Source of the DNA: Escherichia coli
Lineage (GTDB): Bacteria > Pseudomonadota > Gammaproteobacteria > Enterobacterales > Enterobacteriaceae
Direction: 5' to 3' (one strand)
Length of the DNA stretch: 64,000 bases
Assembly: GCF_044324875.1 (NCBI RefSeq)
Contig: NZ_CP172185.1
Below, piece after piece: positions 30,902 to 63,203 of the stretch. Numbering within the stretch: the stretch's first letter is position 1; each line of letters begins with the position of its first letter. The notes under the pieces were generated by a model that was not told the DNA's origin, did not search any database, and saw only the letters and a program-made list of their open reading frames with translations. The position numbers and the translations under genes were made by a program.

Positions 30902-31149
30902 ATATGCAATAATTAATTGCACTGCCCCGCCAGCTATAATCGCGGGGCTTCGTTTTTCAGGGATAACAAAACCCGAAACTTCTTCCATCTGCCAGCAACA
31001 ATGCCTCTTCCTCTATAGTGTTCTCCGGATCTACAGCATCCTGAAGTAGCGCGATGTACTCATTGGCTATCTGCATCAGAAAGTTAAAAACAATGTTTTT
31101 AACCTATAAAAATGGCGCTGTATTTGCGCCATTTTTATCATTCAATGCA

Positions 31150-42489: not shown

Positions 42490-42565
42490 TGGTGCCGATA
42501 ATAGGAGTCGAACCTACGACCTTCGCATTACGAATGCGCTGCTCTACCAACTGAGCTATATCGGC
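42490..42565 (-). tRNA. thrW: tRNA-Thr (anticodon CGU)
   Basis: 76-nt cloverleaf GCCGATATAGCTCAGTTGGTAGAGCAGCGCATTCGTAATGCGAAGGTCGTAGGTTCGACTCCTATTATCGGCACCA. Confidence 0.9.
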
Positions 42566-54427: not shown

Positions 54428-55483
54428 TCATAATCCCAGCACCAGTTGTCTTTCCATTTGAGGGTCAAGCAACGTCACATGCAGCCCCACCAGTCGCACA
54501 CCGCGCCCGCCGCGGCGTTCATCCCAGGTTTTACGCGCGGTGGCGATTAGATCAGCTTTATTCAGCCGTGGCCAGACGTGCTCCTGAGTGGTTTGCTGGA
54601 AATCGTCGAACTTTAATTTCACTCCCTGACGGGCAATCAGTAAATCAGGTTTTACCTTTGCCAGACGGCGTTCAAGTTCCGGGTACAGCCGCTCGATAAT
54701 CGCTTCACATTCAGACCAGTGATGAATATCTTCCGCCATCGTGCGTTCCACGCCGACGGATTTTCGCAACCGTTCGCTGTTAACGTCGCGCTCGTCAATC
54801 CCCTGACTACGCTCCCACAAAATGCGGCCAAATTTGCCAAAACGTTTGAGCAGAGTCACCAGATCACACTTTTGCACATCACCGCAGGTCCGCAGCCCCA
54901 TCGCTTCCAGTTTTGCCGCCGAGACTTTGCCGACGCCAGGAATTTTTGCCAGCGGTAAGGTTTGCAGAAATGCCGGAACTTCTGCCGGAGTAATCACAAA
55001 CTGACCGTTGGGTTTATTCATGTCGGAAGCGATTTTAGCGAGAAACTTTACCGGCGCAACGCCCGCAGACGCCGTCAGTTGCAGCTCGTTGAAGATTGTC
55101 TGGCGGATTTCCTGGGCGATGAGGGTCGCAGAACCGTGGCAATGCACACTATCGGTGACGTCGAGATAGGCTTCATCCAGTGATAACGGTTCAATGCGCG
55201 AGGTATAGCGCGAGAAAATTTCGCGGATATGATTTGAGGCTTCTTTGTAGGCGTCAAAGCGCCCTGGAAGCAGCGTGAGATGTGGGCAAAATTTGAGCGC
55301 CATCCCTGTCGGCATAGCGCTACGTACGCCAAATTTACGCGCGGGATAATTGGCGGTGCTGATCACCCCCCGACGTTCGCGGCTGCCGCCAATAGCAATA
55401 GGGATATCGCGCAGGGCAGGATTGTCGCGCATCTCCACCGCTGCGAAAAAGCAGTCCATATCCACATGAATGATTTTACGCAT
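54428..55483 (-). CDS. dinB: DNA polymerase IV
   Basis: 351-aa Y-family polymerase ([17 protein letters not shown]). Confidence 0.95.
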
Positions 55484-55553: not shown

Positions 55554-56300
55554 TTAACGCGTTCGCTGCGAAAGCACCTGCTGCTTATCCAGCTTTTGCA
55601 CCAGCGGTTGCACCACTTTATCCCCATGCTGACCAAAGTATTGATACAGCGTATCGGACGCACTTTTGGTCAGCACCATAATCTCAATGCGCCGGTTGCC
55701 CGCGCTTTGCGGATTTTTGGCATCCAGCAGCATCTGGTCCGCCATTGCACTTACCTGCATCACTTTATCTTCCGGCATTCCGGCCTCTTCCAGCACCCGA
55801 CGAGCTGAAAGCGCGCGATCGCCCGAAAGGTTCCAGTTGTTGTAGATATTGTTTTTGTAGGCCATCGCATCGGTATGCCCGGTGATGATGATCTTATTGT
55901 CGAGCGAATCAAAAACCGGTGCTAACTCCACCAGCAAAGTTTTAAAGAACGGCATAATCTGCGCGCTGCCGCGTTCAAACATATTGCGGTTCTGGTCATC
56001 TTTAATCAGCACGCGCAGTCCCTGGGGAACAATCTCCATCTCCAGATTCGCTTCCATATGCGCATCACGGGCAATGGTGTTGATACTGGTTGCCAGCTCG
56101 CCAAGCTCAGTAGCGGATTTCTTCTTCAGCAGCGCCGTTTTCTCGTTGACGTCATGCGCTTTTTTCTCCGTCTCTTCCGGCACCGCCACGGTGGCAGGTT
56201 TTGGCGGATGAGACGGTCTGATTTTATTTAACGGCGACAGCCCGCCACCGTTAAAAATCGACTGCCCGTGCAGCGCGGCGATAATGCTTTCACGCTCGGA
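55554..56300 (-). pseudogene. lafU: 3' remnant of a lateral-flagellar MotB-like gene (OmpA-like domain only; junction approximate)
   Basis: ...NWNLSGDRALSARRVLEEAGMP... peptidoglycan-binding domain; no N-terminal transmembrane segment; upstream part of ORF is antisense to the fhiA remnant. Confidence 0.65.
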
Positions 56301-56309
56301 TTTACTGAC

Positions 56310-58023
56310 GCTGTTGACAATCAACTTTATCGTCGTCACCAAAGGGGCCGAGCGTATTTCCGAGGTTTCTGCCCGCTTTACCTTAGACGCGATGCCTGGC
56401 AAACAGATGGCGATTGACGCCGATCTTAACGCCGGGTTGATCAACCAGGCGCAGGCGCAAACCCGGCGCAAAGATGTTGCCAGCGAGGCCGATTTCTACG
56501 GCGCGATGGACGGGGCATCGAAGTTTGTGCGCGGGGATGCCATCGCCGGGATGATGATTCTGGCGATCAACCTGATCGGCGGCGTCTGTATCGGGATCTT
56601 CAAATACAACCTGAGCGCCGACGCCGCCTTCCAGCAGTATGTACTGATGACCATCGGCGACGGGCTGGTGGCGCAGATCCCTTCTCTGCTGCTCTCCACC
56701 GCAGCGGCGATTATCGTCACCCGCGTCAGCGACAACGGCGATATCGCCCATGATGTGCGCCACCAGCTGCTGGCAAGCCCGTCGGTGCTCTACACCGCCA
56801 CCGGGATCATGTTTGTGCTGGCGGTTGTGCCGGGGATGCCGCATCTGCCGTTTTTGCTGTTCAGCGCCCTGCTTGGTTTTACCGGCTGGCGGATGAGCAA
56901 ACGCCCGCAGGCGGCGGAGGCGGAAGAGAAAAGCCTCGAAACACTGACCCGAACCATCACCGAAACCAGCGAGCAACAGGTCAGTTGGGAAACTATTCCG
57001 CTGATCGAGCCCATCAGCTTAAGCCTCGGCTACAAGCTGGTGGCGCTGGTGGACAAAGCACAGGGTAACCCGCTCACCCAGCGGATTCGCGGCGTGCGGC
57101 AGGTGATTTCTGACGGCAACGGCGTGCTGCTGCCGGAGATCCGCATTCGGGAAAACTTCCGCCTCAAGCCCAGCCAGTACGCCATTTTCATCAATGGCAT
57201 TAAGGCTGATGAAGCGGATATTCCGGCGGATAAACTGATGGCCCTGCCCTCCAGCGAAACCTACGGCGAGATTGACGGCGTGCTGGGGAACGACCCGGCG
57301 TACGGGATGCCGGTGACCTGGATCCAGCCCGCGCAGAAAGCGAAGGCGCTGAATATGGGGTATCAGGTGATCGACAGCGCCAGCGTGATTGCCACCCATG
57401 TGAACAAGATTGTCCGCAGCTATATTCCTGATTTGTTTAACTATGATGACATCACGCAGTTGCATAACCGTTTGTCGTCGATGGCACCGCGCCTGGCGGA
57501 AGATTTGAGCGCGGCGCTCAATTACAGCCAATTGCTGAAAGTGTACCGGGCGCTGCTGACCGAAGGCGTTTCCCTGCGCGATATTGTCACCATCGCCACC
57601 GTGCTGGTCGCCAGTAGCACAGTGACCAAAGATCATATCCTGCTGGCGGCCGATGTGCGCCTGGCATTGCGGCGCAGCATTACCCATCCGTTCGTTCGCA
57701 AGCAGGAGCTGACGGTGTATACGCTGAATAATGAGCTGGAAAATCTGCTCACCAACGTGGTGAATCAGGCGCAACAGGGCGGGAAAGTGATGCTCGACAG
57801 CGTGCCGGTTGACCCGAATATGCTCAACCAGTTCCAGAGTACGATGCCGCAGGTGAAGGAGCAGATGAAAGCAGCGGGGAAAGCCCCTGTGCTGCTGGTG
57901 CCGCCGCAGCTGCGTCCTTTGCTGGCGCGTTATGCAAGGTTGTTTGCGCCGGGTCTGCATGTGCTGTCGTATAACGAAGTGCCGGATGAGCTGGAGTTGA
58001 AGATTATGGGGGCGTTGAGTTGA
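56310..58023 (+). pseudogene. fhiA: 5'-truncated FlhA-family flagellar export gate gene (about 130 N-terminal codons missing; junction approximate)
   Basis: FlhA motifs from ...VTKGAERISEVSARFTLDAMPGKQMAIDADL to C-terminus; ORF begins without transmembrane segments 1-3. Confidence 0.65.
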
Positions 58024-58029
58024 TGGCCT

Positions 58030-58360
58030 TTGGGGCGAATCCGGCATCGGTGCACAATTGCCGGATGCGGCGTGAACGCCTTATCCGGCCTACCGATCCG
58101 GCACAAGTTTGTAGGCATGATAAGACGCGTCAGCGTCGCATCAGGCATCTGCGCACAATTGCCGGATGCGGTGTGAACGCCTTATCCAGCCCACCGATCC
58201 GGCACAGGTTTGTAGGCATGATAAGACGCGCCAGCGTCGCATCAGGCACCGGTGCACAATTGCCGGATGCGGTGTGAACGCCTTATCCGGCCCACCGATC
58301 CGGCACAAGTTTGTAGGCATGATAAGACGCGCCTGCGTCGCATCAGGCATCCGCGCACAA
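58030..58360. repeat. Tandem REP/BIME array, about 3.3 copies of a 92-101 bp unit
   Basis: Repeated gcacaattgccggatgcgg(c/t)gtgaacgccttatccggcc...tgtaggcatgataagacgcg...cgtcgcatcaggca. Confidence 0.85.
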
Positions 58361-58858
58361 TTATAAAATAATACGCTCCCCGGCACTAAAATCCGTTATG
58401 TCTCCCGCCCAATCAATGGGATATAACCCTCGCGCTACATCGCGATGGAACGTTGAGAATGGCCAATCACTCACCTGCTTTACCCAGCCATGTTTCACTG
58501 GATTTATATAAATATAATCAACATGATGGCGATAATCTTTTGTATTGCGAATGGCATGCTCCCAAAAACGCGGTTGCCAGATATTTTTCAATCCGCAAGC
58601 ATGGGTGAACTGCTTTTTAATCTCCCGCCAGCGAGAGGAAAAATCATCATCGCTTTCGGGTAATGTCCAGATACAGTGCATATGCTCTGGCAAAACTACC
58701 CAGGCGTTAATTTCAAAAGGTCTGGCCTGCTTAACTTTAATAATGGCGTTACGGAGTGTCTGGTACTGGGTGGTCAAAAGTTGGCTTCGACGATTCCGTA
58801 AATTTACCGTGAAAAACCATGTTCCCCCCTTGATGTAATAACGACGATATTCAGACAT
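58361..58858 (-). CDS. rayT: REP-associated tyrosine transposase (RAYT)
   Basis: HuH motif (HMHCI) and catalytic Tyr region; flanked on both sides by REP sequences. Confidence 0.75.
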   Translation of the reverse strand: MSEYRRYYIKGGTWFFTVNLRNRRSQLLTTQYQTLRNAIIKVKQARPFEINAWVVLPEHMHCIWTLPESDDDFSSRWREIKKQFTHACGLKNIWQPRFWEHAIRNTKDYRHHVDYIYINPVKHGWVKQVSDWPFSTFHRDVARGLYPIDWAGDITDFSAGERIIL

Positions 58859-58952
58859 GGCGACTCCTTTTTCTCAACGATAAGAAGAAAAGGAAAAGTC
58901 GACAATGAAGTTGTGTTATATCGGGAAAGCAGCTCGCAAAAAATTCGCAGAC

Positions 58953-59034
58953 TCGTAGGCATGATAAGACGCGGCAGCGTCGCATCAGGCATCGGTGCAC
59001 TATTGCCGGATGCGGCGTGAACGCCTTATCCGTC
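58953..59034. repeat. REP/BIME element
   Basis: tgtaggcatgataagacgcggcagcgtcgcatcaggcat...gccggatgcggcgtgaacgccttatccg. Confidence 0.8.
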
Positions 59035-59784
59035 CTACAAAATCGTCTCTTCCGTCAAAATCCTGCGCGCGCCTAAAAAATGATCCTGCCAGAAAGGTTC
59101 AGCTAACCGACTTACCCGAATGGTTTCCCCGGTGCGCGGCGACTCGATAAACTGACCGTCTCCCAGATACACGCCCATATGATCGGCAATCTCACGGCTG
59201 TGAATATGGAAAAACAGCAAATCTCCCCGGCGCAGGTCGTTATTCGCCACAATCGTTGCCCGATGGTAGTGATACATCTCATTGGCCGTGCGCGGGAGCT
59301 TCGCCTCGAGGATCTTGTTGTAGGCATAAAAAACCAACCCGCTACAGTCGAAGCCTTGATCGGGCCGCGTGCCGCCCCAGACGTAAGGCTTACCAAGCTG
59401 CTGCTCCAGGCGGTGAATCGCCACTTCGGTGATGTTGTGCAGATGGTCGCTGCTTAAGAAATGGTTGTTCTCCGCCAGCGCCTGCCAGCGTCTGTCACTC
59501 GCCTTGAGCGGCGCAGGAAACCATTCTGGATGCTGTTTTATCTGTTCGCGGTTGTGCTGGCGCAGCGCCTTTCTGCTTTCGGCATTGCCTTCCACAATAT
59601 AGCTGGCCTGTTTTTTCAGATGGGTTTGGTACTGTTTTAATAAACGCGCACGGTTTTGCATCCGCTGGCGGGCGGCGTAGCTGAAAGAGATATGTGATGT
59701 GGTGGCGCTGGCGAGTAAAGGGAGCAAAACGCATAACGAAAACACGCCTGGATGCAGAAATCTGCCGTGAAAGAACGAAGACAT
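59035..59784 (-). CDS. yafL: NlpC/P60-family putative lipoprotein peptidase (249 aa)
   Basis: NlpC/P60 motifs (WGGT...GFDCSGLV, HMGVYLGDGQFIES). Confidence 0.8.
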   Translation of the reverse strand: MSSFFHGRFLHPGVFSLCVLLPLLASATTSHISFSYAARQRMQNRARLLKQYQTHLKKQASYIVEGNAESRKALRQHNREQIKQHPEWFPAPLKASDRRWQALAENNHFLSSDHLHNITEVAIHRLEQQLGKPYVWGGTRPDQGFDCSGLVFYAYNKILEAKLPRTANEMYHYHRATIVANNDLRRGDLLFFHIHSREIADHMGVYLGDGQFIESPRTGETIRVSRLAEPFWQDHFLGARRILTEETIL

Positions 59785-60084
59785 GAAGGACATAAACCGG
59801 CTGAATGAAGGGGAGAATTTTAAAAGACCGGAGGAGTAAGCGGGATTATTAATTGCTTATTTGCATATTACTATTGAGGTTTCATAATCTTAGGAAATAA
59901 ATGATACATGCGCTTTTCGGACTAATGAAAACTGCCCCTGTGCTAAATTTGTAAACCCTGCGCCGACAGGCTTGCGTAAAACTCTTTTGGTGATAATGTG
60001 AGCCTTCCAAATCCAGACTATTCCGATTTGGGATCCATTTTGCCGTCCTGGCGTGTGTAACCGTTTTATCAAGGAATAAGCAGT

Positions 60085-61599: not shown

Positions 61600-61745
61600 G
61601 GCGAAGATTGATTTAAGTATTTTCAGGTCGGATGCGGCGTAAACGCATTATTCGGCCTACGGTTCGGGTACAGATTTGTAGGCATGATAAGACGCGTCAG
61701 CGTCGCATCAGGCATCAGCGCACAAATGCCGGATGCGGCGTAAAC
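61600..61745. repeat. REP/BIME cluster; its last palindromic unit carries the IS insertion
   Basis: ggtcggatgcggcgtaaacgc..., tgtaggcatgataagacgcg..., gccggatgcggcgtaaac. Confidence 0.8.
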
Positions 61746-62500
<755 letters not shown>

Positions 62501-62604
62501 ATCAGCATACTTGTCCTTAGCCTTCTGCAGTGACAGCTGGTAGTACAGCGTGCTTCTGGCCAGCCCTGCAGCCTTTAACAGGTCAGACTGGCAGTGTCCG
62601 CACC

Positions 62605-63135
62605 TCAGGCTCCGGATGACTTTCGTTTTTTCTCCAGCTCCTGGCGCTTTTTTTCCAGGAGATGCTCCTGCATGGCTTTCAGATATGCATTTTCTGCGCG
62701 AAGATAACGCAGCTCATTCTTCATCTCTTCCGGCGTCATGTTTGCCTCGTTTTCATGGGTATCATCAGAACGGGTCATGCTTTTCTCCTTCCAGCGCCTG
62801 ATAAAGGCCTCATTACCAGATTTGCGGTAGCCTTTTATCCAGTTTTTAACCGTGTTGTGGCTGGGAATGTTAAACCGGGCAGCTACCCGGGGTAGAGACT
62901 CAGAATGCCCGAGAGCATAAAGAACCACGCAAAGTTTATCTTCAGGAGAATAGCTACGCTTGTGTCTGCAATCCAGTGCCCGAGGACCGTGAAGAAGAAA
63001 AAGATTAATCCAGTGTGAGAGGCTGGTGTGAGAAAGTTGAAAGAGTTTTGCCGTAGAAATGATGCCTGCATGACCGGCCAGGTAGTGATTTACAGCGGCA
63101 AGTTTTACTTCAAATGAATGTTTCATAAACTGCAC
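62605..63135 (-). CDS. IS3-family transposase OrfA (HTH)
   Basis: 176-aa ORF ending at the GGAAAAAAAG frameshift window. Confidence 0.7.
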   Translation of the reverse strand: MQFMKHSFEVKLAAVNHYLAGHAGIISTAKLFQLSHTSLSHWINLFLLHGPRALDCRHKRSYSPEDKLCVVLYALGHSESLPRVAARFNIPSHNTVKNWIKGYRKSGNEAFIRRWKEKSMTRSDDTHENEANMTPEEMKNELRYLRAENAYLKAMQEHLLEKKRQELEKKRKSSGA

Positions 63136-63203
63136 CTTCAGATGTCAGATTATGTCCAACATTTGGGGTGCAGTTCAAACGCCTTATCCGGCCTACGCCA
63201 GAC

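Follow-up and report, generated by a model that had tools for sequence, protein, structure and literature searches.

The 64,000-nucleotide stretch of Escherichia coli DNA analysed here (the window) carries the E. coli REPtron, i.e. the fixed, domesticated HUH/Y1 nuclease gene rayT, present in a single copy according to the literature, together with its cognate Y and Z2 REPs, an assignment to which we give a probability of about 0.93. The locus is one further allele, with three REP pairs, of an array known to be polymorphic in length. Both the structure of the REPtron and its variability from strain to strain have been known since the papers of 2010-2012 (Nunvar 2010, Ton-Hoang 2012, Messing 2012). 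Of the enzymes that might have spread several hundred REP hairpins in the E. coli genome, RayT is the best candidate, and it serves as a textbook example of how a transposase is domesticated in bacteria. The residual value of the instance in the window is a small argument on the mechanism by which the array changes. The original prediction, made from the sequence alone, of an intact rayT embedded in REP/BIME repeats was confirmed by the matches to the structure 4ER8 and to the family NF047646 and by REP typing.

Chromosomal position of rayT

The site holding rayT is bordered by flhA' (fhiA) and yafL. The three genes of the locus are the following.

56284-58023, plus strand: flhA' (fhiA/lfhA), N-terminally truncated remnant of the Flag-2 gene flhA, left border of the REPtron (Pfam FHIPEP)
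58361-58858, minus strand: rayT (yafM, tnpA_REP), REP-associated tyrosine transposase of 165 aa, intact (PDB 4ER8, NCBIfam NF047646)
59035-59793, minus strand: yafL, C40/NlpC-P60 peptidase, right border of the REPtron (Pfam NLPC_P60, E=3.2e-33; RefSeq yafL)

The match of flhA' to Pfam FHIPEP is highly significant (E=3.4e-189) and covers positions 99-656 of the 657 of the profile. Its counterpart in strain M7424, which shows 99.7% identity to a 1.6-kb query around the locus, is a partial FlhA pseudogene according to RefSeq, and the annotation of M7424 over the whole matching stretch comprises partial FlhA, rayT and yafL in this order. The same position of rayT between FlhA and yafL was found in every rayT-carrying RefSeq genome that we fetched, and the 64-kb window contains one copy of the gene.

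This agrees with the literature. The E. coli RAYT gene yafM was described as delimited by Y and Z2 palindromic units, with BIME-2 elements on both sides (Nunvar 2010, PMC2817692). The position of tnpA_REP between yafL and fhiA is unique and the gene is present in a single copy; a single BIME is invariably found at its 5' side, and the 3' side is variable (Ton-Hoang 2012, PMC3333891). The same study reported a precise loss of tnpA_REP with retention of the BIMEs in some B2 strains, and a replacement of the whole REPtron structure by hicA-hicB in B1 strains.

The RayT protein

A phmmer comparison of RayT with PDB 4ER8_A ("TnpArep") gave an E-value of 8e-114, with residues 1-164 aligned and 6 substitutions. 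Of the 165 residues, 159 (96%) are identical to the K-12 protein. The substitutions of the window protein relative to K-12 (T34M, N37H, Q44R, A45D, S69G, I154V and L165S) all lie outside the active site. RayT of the window is identical to WP_000006263.1, the RefSeq protein of M7424, SW070910 and MINF_7C. The active site of E. coli TnpA_REP is formed by H59-M60-H61, Y115, N119, H123 and E161 (Messing 2012, PMC3479197). These seven residues, the integrity of which had been singled out for checking in the original prediction, are all kept in the window protein as well as in 15 of 15 other rayT loci compared.

The NCBIfam equivalog NF047646 (REP_Tyr_transpos) recognizes RayT with 178.3 bits (cutoff 80). 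A Pfam search at the default threshold returned no match for RayT; when matches up to E<=10 were considered, Y1_Tnp scored 17.3 bits, which is below its cutoff of 23. The identification of RayT rests on NCBIfam and PDB, because Pfam provides this sub-threshold Y1_Tnp match only. The NCBIfam model transpos_IS200 gave 13.9 bits (cutoff 55). Sub-cutoff scores for Y1_Tnp and IS200 fit the view of RAYTs as a clade apart from the IS200/IS605 transposases.

An autonomous insertion sequence of the IS200/IS605 type instead of a domesticated, fixed gene is very improbable at this locus. A HUH/Y1 nuclease gene between inverted hairpin repeats does resemble the architecture of such elements, and the similarity to the Y1_Tnp and IS200 models, weak as it is, points in the same direction. 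Against this, both scores stay below the cutoffs, rayT occupies the flhA-yafL position in all rayT-carrying genomes fetched, the literature gives a single copy at a unique locus, and the repeats belong to genome-wide REP families and are not element-specific ends. The low scores and the fixed position across genomes effectively refute this reading.

RayT shares with the transposases of IS608 and ISDra2 (IS200/IS605) the HUH/Y1 single-strand nuclease, the recognition of hairpins and a guide-like tetranucleotide that precedes the hairpin on its 5' side. Unlike these enzymes, RayT is a monomer encoded at one fixed locus, it recognizes genome-wide REPs in trans, and it possesses a C-terminal extension contributing E161 to the metal site.

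In vitro, the K-12 protein exhibits REP-dependent binding of single-stranded DNA, cleavage at C|T and strand transfer (PMC3333891). Judging from the 96% identity and the intact active-site residues, the RayT allele of the window should be capable of the same three reactions.

REPs flanking rayT

REPs were typed against the E. coli Y, Z1 and Z2 consensus by a fuzzy regular-expression scan with overlapped matching. The Y and Z2 consensus sequences used for this purpose are those which we take to be valid for E. coli. The rayT-flanking REPs in Table 1 of Nunvar 2010 are in agreement with them. The following elements were found on the two sides of rayT (Y> and Z2< give type and orientation).

58060-58362, no strand assigned: BIME-2 array 3' of rayT, three 101-bp units (Tandem Repeats Finder and REP typing)
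58060-58093, Y>: Y REP 1 (REP typing)
58111-58146, Z2<: Z2 REP 1 (REP typing)
58161-58194, Y>: Y REP 2 (REP typing)
58212-58247, Z2<: Z2 REP 2 (REP typing)
58262-58295, Y>: Y REP 3 (REP typing)
58313-58348, Z2<: Z2 REP 3, the REP nearest to the 3' end of rayT (REP typing)
58955-59038, no strand assigned: single BIME 5' of rayT, consisting of an inverted Z2 REP, a 14-nt linker and a Y REP (REP typing, naRNA4)
58955-58990, Z2<: Z2 REP of the 5' BIME (REP typing)
59005-59038, Y>: Y REP of the 5' BIME (REP typing)

Tandem Repeats Finder reported a repeat at 58039-58362 with a period of 101, 3.2 copies, 92% matches, no indels and a score of 564. The tandem array had thus been recognized correctly in the original prediction, but its period of roughly 97 bp and its 3.3 copies had to be replaced by 101 bp and 3.2 copies. 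A second repeat search returned the 101-nt register again, plus a fifth, dispersed copy at 58948-59038.

Each unit is a double-REP unit, as had been proposed, and is built of a Y REP, a 17-nt S linker, an inverted Z2 REP and a 14-nt s linker, so that the array reads Y> Z2< Y> Z2< Y> Z2< with head-to-head linkers of 17 nt and tail-to-tail linkers of 14 nt. The "few point changes" between the units turned out to be pairwise differences at 5-8 positions, corresponding to 92-95% identity, and the REPs of the array depart from the Y and Z2 consensus by 0-3 mismatches. With one mismatch at most allowed, a scan of the 64-kb window gave 10 occurrences of the REP head motif GTAGGCNKGATAAG (0.06 expected by chance), and 8 of these 10 occurrences are situated at the rayT locus.

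BIME-2 elements are defined by alternating Y and Z2 REPs, short linkers and tandem copies (PMC3333891). The array of the window exhibits this alternation, short linkers without a long L linker containing an IHF site, and tandem copies. Binding and cleavage of BIME-2 by DNA gyrase is a property known from the literature (cited in PMC2817692).

As DNA, the canonical REPs of the locus fold into the expected imperfect hairpins, with energies of about -9 to -12 kcal/mol. The head of Y REPs 2 and 3 is degenerate: both terminate with ...GCCCAC, so that the minus strand has GTGG in place of GTAG. This change also destroys the plus-strand iREP-II site, turning CC|TAC into CC|CAC. In addition, the inner stem of both REPs is altered by a C>T change, and their predicted folding (-6.2 and -9.4 kcal/mol) is weaker than that of Y REP 1 (-12.2 kcal/mol).

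GTAG/CTAC heads are present in the Z2 REPs at 58313-58348 and 58955-58990 and in the Y REP at 59005-59038, and rayT is therefore flanked on both sides by cognate inverted REPs. The minus-strand sequence of the right-hand Y REP, GTAGGACGGATAAGGCGTTCACGCCGCATCCG, is one loop base different from the oligonucleotide co-crystallized in 4ER8 (sequence according to PMC3479197). Its CTAC head overlaps the stop codon of yafL. The REP pair on this side of the gene had been predicted as well, although with an end at 59034, which cuts off the last 4 nt of the pair, i.e. this CTAC head. A single Z2/Y pair on the 5' side is common to 16 of 16 rayT-carrying loci compared, including the window.

On the other side, the array is enclosed by the convergent stop codons of flhA' (58021-58023, plus strand) and rayT (58361-58363, minus strand). 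Open reading frames running through the array (e.g. 58020-58277 on the plus and 58141-58386 on the minus strand) consist of REP sequence and were discarded as spurious.

Tandem repeats of 101 bp are prone to mis-assembly from short reads, and the three-unit array could in principle be an assembly or collapse artefact hiding a different copy number. This is most improbable here: the 337-bp spacer is base-for-base the same as in the complete genome of M7424, 3 further complete genomes match a whole 737-nt query with the identity (99.6%) and span of M7424, and the order of the units is anchored by the substitutions that distinguish them.

The REPtron of K-12 MG1655 corresponds to that of the window in the gene, the site between flhA' (fhiA) and yafL, the Y/Z2 types, the catalytic residues and the presence of just one Z2/Y BIME 5' of the gene. 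It differs in the number of 3' pairs (2 compared to 3 in the window) and in the spacer (223 compared to 337 bp). The two Y REPs with a GTGG head and the seven RayT substitutions set the window apart from MG1655, too, and the neighbouring dinJ-yafQ module of MG1655 is absent from the window.

Variation of the array among strains

To obtain pair counts, 21 loci from complete RefSeq genomes were fetched and their REPs typed. The numbers of pairs on the 3' side of rayT were as follows.

1 pair, spacer 144 bp: O157:H7, the rayT of which carries W99*
2 pairs, spacer 223 bp: K-12 derivative, EC2, ST536 isolate
2 pairs, spacer 219 bp: Ec394, MNCRE44
3 pairs, spacer 337 bp: window, M7424
3 pairs, spacer 317 bp: RM13745, with one Z1-like REP and canonical heads
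3 pairs, spacer 319 bp: NCTC11151
4 pairs, spacer 417 bp: SCU-125
5 pairs, spacer 516 bp: 998, M-17
5 pairs, spacer 539 bp: MINF_7C

The 3' array is a length-polymorphic minisatellite with 1-5 pairs in the species. The REP copy number at this locus had been expected to vary between strains, and it does so over this range. An array "expanded" by one pair over K-12, as had been stated, is present in the window; three pairs lie in the middle of the 1-5 sampled, and the term holds in this relative sense only.

Closely related loci differ as well. MINF_7C encodes a RayT identical to that of the window and shows 1 mismatch in 1400 nt of rayT-yafL, yet it possesses 5 pairs compared to 3. Likewise, one RayT sequence is common to NCTC11151, SCU-125, 998 and M-17, the arrays of which comprise 3, 4, 5 and 5 pairs, respectively.

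Among the BLAST matches listed, spacers of about 122, 144, 192, 208, 215-232, 317-319, 337, 417, 516 and 539 bp were found; these spans are rough classes only, as the right-hand BIME is sometimes joined in. Two pairs are the commonest class by BLAST span among the matches listed, and the exact array of the window was detected in 4 of 5426 complete genomes, again among the matches listed. Other published alleles were also recovered, namely the hicAB allele (L014), rayT-less BIME arrays (L012, L016, L019) and a 97-bp filler (L013). Sequence comparison ruled out that this 97-bp "empty" allele is the hicAB allele minus hicAB.

Mechanism of array length change

We lean to the view that unequal homologous recombination between the direct repeats of 99-101 bp, or replication slippage between them, most likely accounts for the gain and loss of whole units.

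The second mechanism compatible with the data, the local RAYT-mediated proliferation put forward in the original prediction, is in our estimation less likely than recombination or slippage and rather doubtful; as a cause it has the standing of a hypothesis from the literature, for which sequence data cannot furnish proof. According to this model, RayT itself would add the extra units by REP binding, C|T cuts in iREP and linker, and strand transfer, acting on replicating or extruded single-stranded DNA and lengthening the array by a BIME unit (Ton-Hoang 2012, Fig. 7B/C). Published biochemistry has shown that RayT binds the single-stranded REP hairpin via the 5' GTAG and a stem mismatch, that it cuts at C|T in the linker or in the inverted REP next to it, and that it can rejoin strands; the spread of REPs and BIMEs in trans has been proposed to originate from this activity.

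Several observations suit such an activity at the locus. BIMEs taken from the REPtron itself are cleaved and recombined by TnpA_REP in vitro on either strand, tandem BIMEs can be put together by strand transfer, and the enzyme accepts y as well as z2 REPs and can act over some distance (PMC3333891). The rayT gene of the window is intact, the varying array lies on its proximal 3' side, so close to the gene that an action in cis would be favoured, and a canonical REP with GTAG is retained on one strand of every unit. The O157:H7 allele with the W99* mutation in rayT has one pair only, but O157:H7 represents a single young clone, so that one pair there says little.

The structure of the varying units is more difficult to combine with RayT catalysis. 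Binding as well as cleavage by TnpA_REP strictly depends on the GTAG located 5' of the REP (PMC3333891), and no mutation of GTAG is tolerated in the E. coli system (PMC8266576). Cleavage requires a central C|T, either in TGCC|TGAT (iREP-I, in z iREPs) or in CC|TAC (iREP-II) (PMC3333891). In the varying units, one REP lacks GTAG and the matching iREP C|T sites, i.e. features reported as indispensable. The unit of the window with the GTGG head is present four times in MINF_7C. In the other, B2-like lineage, the Z2 of the repeated unit has the head GTCG and the tail ...ATCTGGCA; one strand has thereby lost the head, and the opposite strand has lost both iREP sites. In both lineages at 3-5 pairs, the varying unit thus appears, from its motifs, to be half-disabled as a substrate of RayT, and recombination or slippage is therefore easier to reconcile with these arrays.

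Changes of the array in genomes without rayT point in the same direction. The rayT-less strains KE48 and APEC 102026 (Nissle 1917 type) are nearly identical in the flanks of the locus (2 of 900 and 0 of 620 positions differ), but their arrays differ by exactly one 99-bp unit, KE48 being the shorter one. This is suggestive of a RAYT-independent change. Alternatively, rayT could have been deleted independently in KE48 by a Y-Y event, which would give the same array in place of a later loss of a unit.

Observations beyond this locus likewise argue against RayT catalysis. The number of BIME-2 units varies between strains at other loci, too, far from rayT (PMC3333891), and only minor differences in REP/BIME numbers exist between strains with and without tnpA_REP (Ton-Hoang 2012, PMC3333891). 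The REPtron papers considered here do not demonstrate an activity of E. coli RayT in vivo; Ton-Hoang 2012 (PMC3333891) stressed that both the mechanism and the in vivo frequency are not known.

The hybrid units of MINF_7C fit two out-of-register crossovers plus one substitution. The crossover interval deduced for them (unit positions 73-89) includes a minus-strand TGCC|TGAT, which makes the pattern non-discriminating between the two mechanisms.

A further reading, which we hold to be improbable, is that long rayT-adjacent arrays mark an escape from RayT and not RayT-driven proliferation. A unit that has lost one GTAG head would no longer be processed or excised by RayT and would behave as a plain minisatellite, the number of which drifts upward. 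The observation behind this reading is a single one, the presence of degenerate heads (GTGG in Y, GTCG in Z2) in both lineages with 3-5 pairs. The link between degenerate heads and amplification comes from two lineages, and RM13745 has 3 pairs with canonical heads.

Possible roles of the array in transcripts

As the array forms the 3' untranslated region of both convergent genes, flhA' and rayT, it probably acts as a terminator and mRNA-stabilizing element, too, by analogy with other REPs. The distance between the rayT stop codon and the nearest Z2 REP stem is 12 nt. Liang, Rudd and Deutscher reportedly found in 2015 that expression is lowered via ribosome stalling if a REP is situated no more than about 15 nt from a stop codon. 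REPs in general have been characterized as local terminator-stabilizer elements, which correlate with higher expression of both genes if located between convergent genes (2026 preprint). Promoter and terminator consensus scans of 57900-59200 revealed none.

The Z2-s-Y pairs on the minus strand score above the gathering threshold (59.5) of the Rfam family RF02564, naRNA4, which is derived from REP325.

58215-58292, minus strand: naRNA4 match, 75.9 bits
58958-59035, minus strand: naRNA4 match, 73.1 bits
58114-58191, minus strand: naRNA4 match, 72.1 bits

These matches reflect homology of the REP pairs and are not evidence of an RNA gene.

Comparison with other REP systems

REP325 (yjdM-yjdN), the source of naRNA4, resembles the array of the window in the alternation of Y and Z2 REPs, the short linkers and a tandem number that varies between strains. 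Unlike BIME-2 elements of the REP325 type, the array of the window abuts rayT and lies between convergent genes. The role of REP325 in nucleoid compaction is now disputed (2026 preprint).

In the REPIN-RAYT systems of Pseudomonas (Bertels and Rainey 2011), a single-copy RAYT is flanked by cognate REP doublets as in E. coli, and in both systems the doublet of inverted REPs is the presumed mobile unit. The RAYT group and the REP sequences differ between the two, and the Pseudomonas REPINs are dispersed and symmetric, whereas the E. coli units are heterologous Y/Z2 pairs in tandem arrays.

Sequence divergence of the REPtron and its upstream flank

Compared to the locus of strain M7424, the REPtron of the window differs at only 5 of 1598 positions, whereas the flhA' pseudogene directly upstream of it differs at 45 of 1500. 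From these sequences, the few differences in the REPtron against the many in flhA' indicate a recombination breakpoint near the end of flhA', inside its final few hundred bases. The genes on this side of the REPtron are:

54428-55483, - strand, dinB, upstream of flhA'
55554-56471, - strand, lafU, upstream of flhA'
56284-58023, + strand, truncated flhA' pseudogene

The truncated flhA' ORF begins inside that of lafU, and this arrangement is the usual Flag-2 deletion scar, as in K-12-like genomes.

On the other side of the REPtron, the toxin-antitoxin pair dinJ-yafQ is found between yafL and dpaA/yafK in K-12, EC2, HeN100 and O157:H7. No dinJ-yafQ pair lies between these genes in the window, M7424, RM13745, Ec394 and NCTC11151.

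59794-60084, yafL-dpaA/yafK spacer of the window without dinJ-yafQ, about 300 bp

Alleles of the flhA-yafL spacer

In O157:H7 strain Balcarce_14.2 (locus L005, 1969-2466) the rayT reading frame is interrupted early by a stop codon, W99*; a single Y/Z2 pair remains in the 3' array. The span is equal in other O157:H7 genomes among the matches listed.

The rayT-less arrays are:

L012, strain 2022H048, spacer of 151 bp
L016, APEC 102026/Nissle 1917, spacer of 274 bp
L019, strain KE48, spacer of 175 bp

All three share the derived change GCCAGATG in the last Y REP, and a hybrid Z2 junction, gtagtgtcgcatcagaca, is common to L012 and L016. The KE48 array is identical to the Nissle-type one except that exactly 99 bp are missing from it.

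A fourth spacer allele of 97 bp was detected in strain LCP30S3_I5 (L013, 1825-1921), containing neither rayT nor hicAB nor any intact REP. Its end, reading tattgccg/tcctacaa, looks like the right-hand Y REP minus the hairpin interior, and a short G/C-rich palindrome, cccctcgcccctttggggagaggg, lies within the spacer. By comparison, this allele does not correspond to the hicAB allele with hicAB taken out.

ORFs annotated across BIME arrays

The RefSeq "hypothetical protein" CDSs WP_014639450.1, WP_139059028.1 and WP_125093574.1 lie wholly within long BIME arrays and are almost certainly spurious, repeat-made ORFs. In the fetched flhA-yafL loci, RefSeq annotates CDSs across BIME arrays at:

L008, 1903-2061
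L010, 1982-2425
L015, 1779-2123
L018, 1779-2222

The window's own array is crossed by ORFs of 85 and 81 aa, too, almost certainly spurious products of the repeats of the same kind.

A second BIME interrupted by an insertion sequence

In the interval from yafJ to the following gene, we detected a second BIME in the window with the order Y> Z2< Y>.

61627-61745 and 63179-63197, second BIME
61746-63178, IS3-family element, 1433 bp

The element interrupts the loop of the third Y REP and shows 99.9% identity to RefSeq-annotated IS1397. REP loops are a known target of IS1397. The junctions read gccggatgcggcgtaaac/IS/aacgccttatccggcctac, with the 3-bp AAC present twice as a duplication.

Elsewhere in the window, Rfam gathering-level matches were obtained for IS009 (30944-31144, - strand, 192.9 bits) and for a tRNA (42493-42565, - strand, 71.8 bits).
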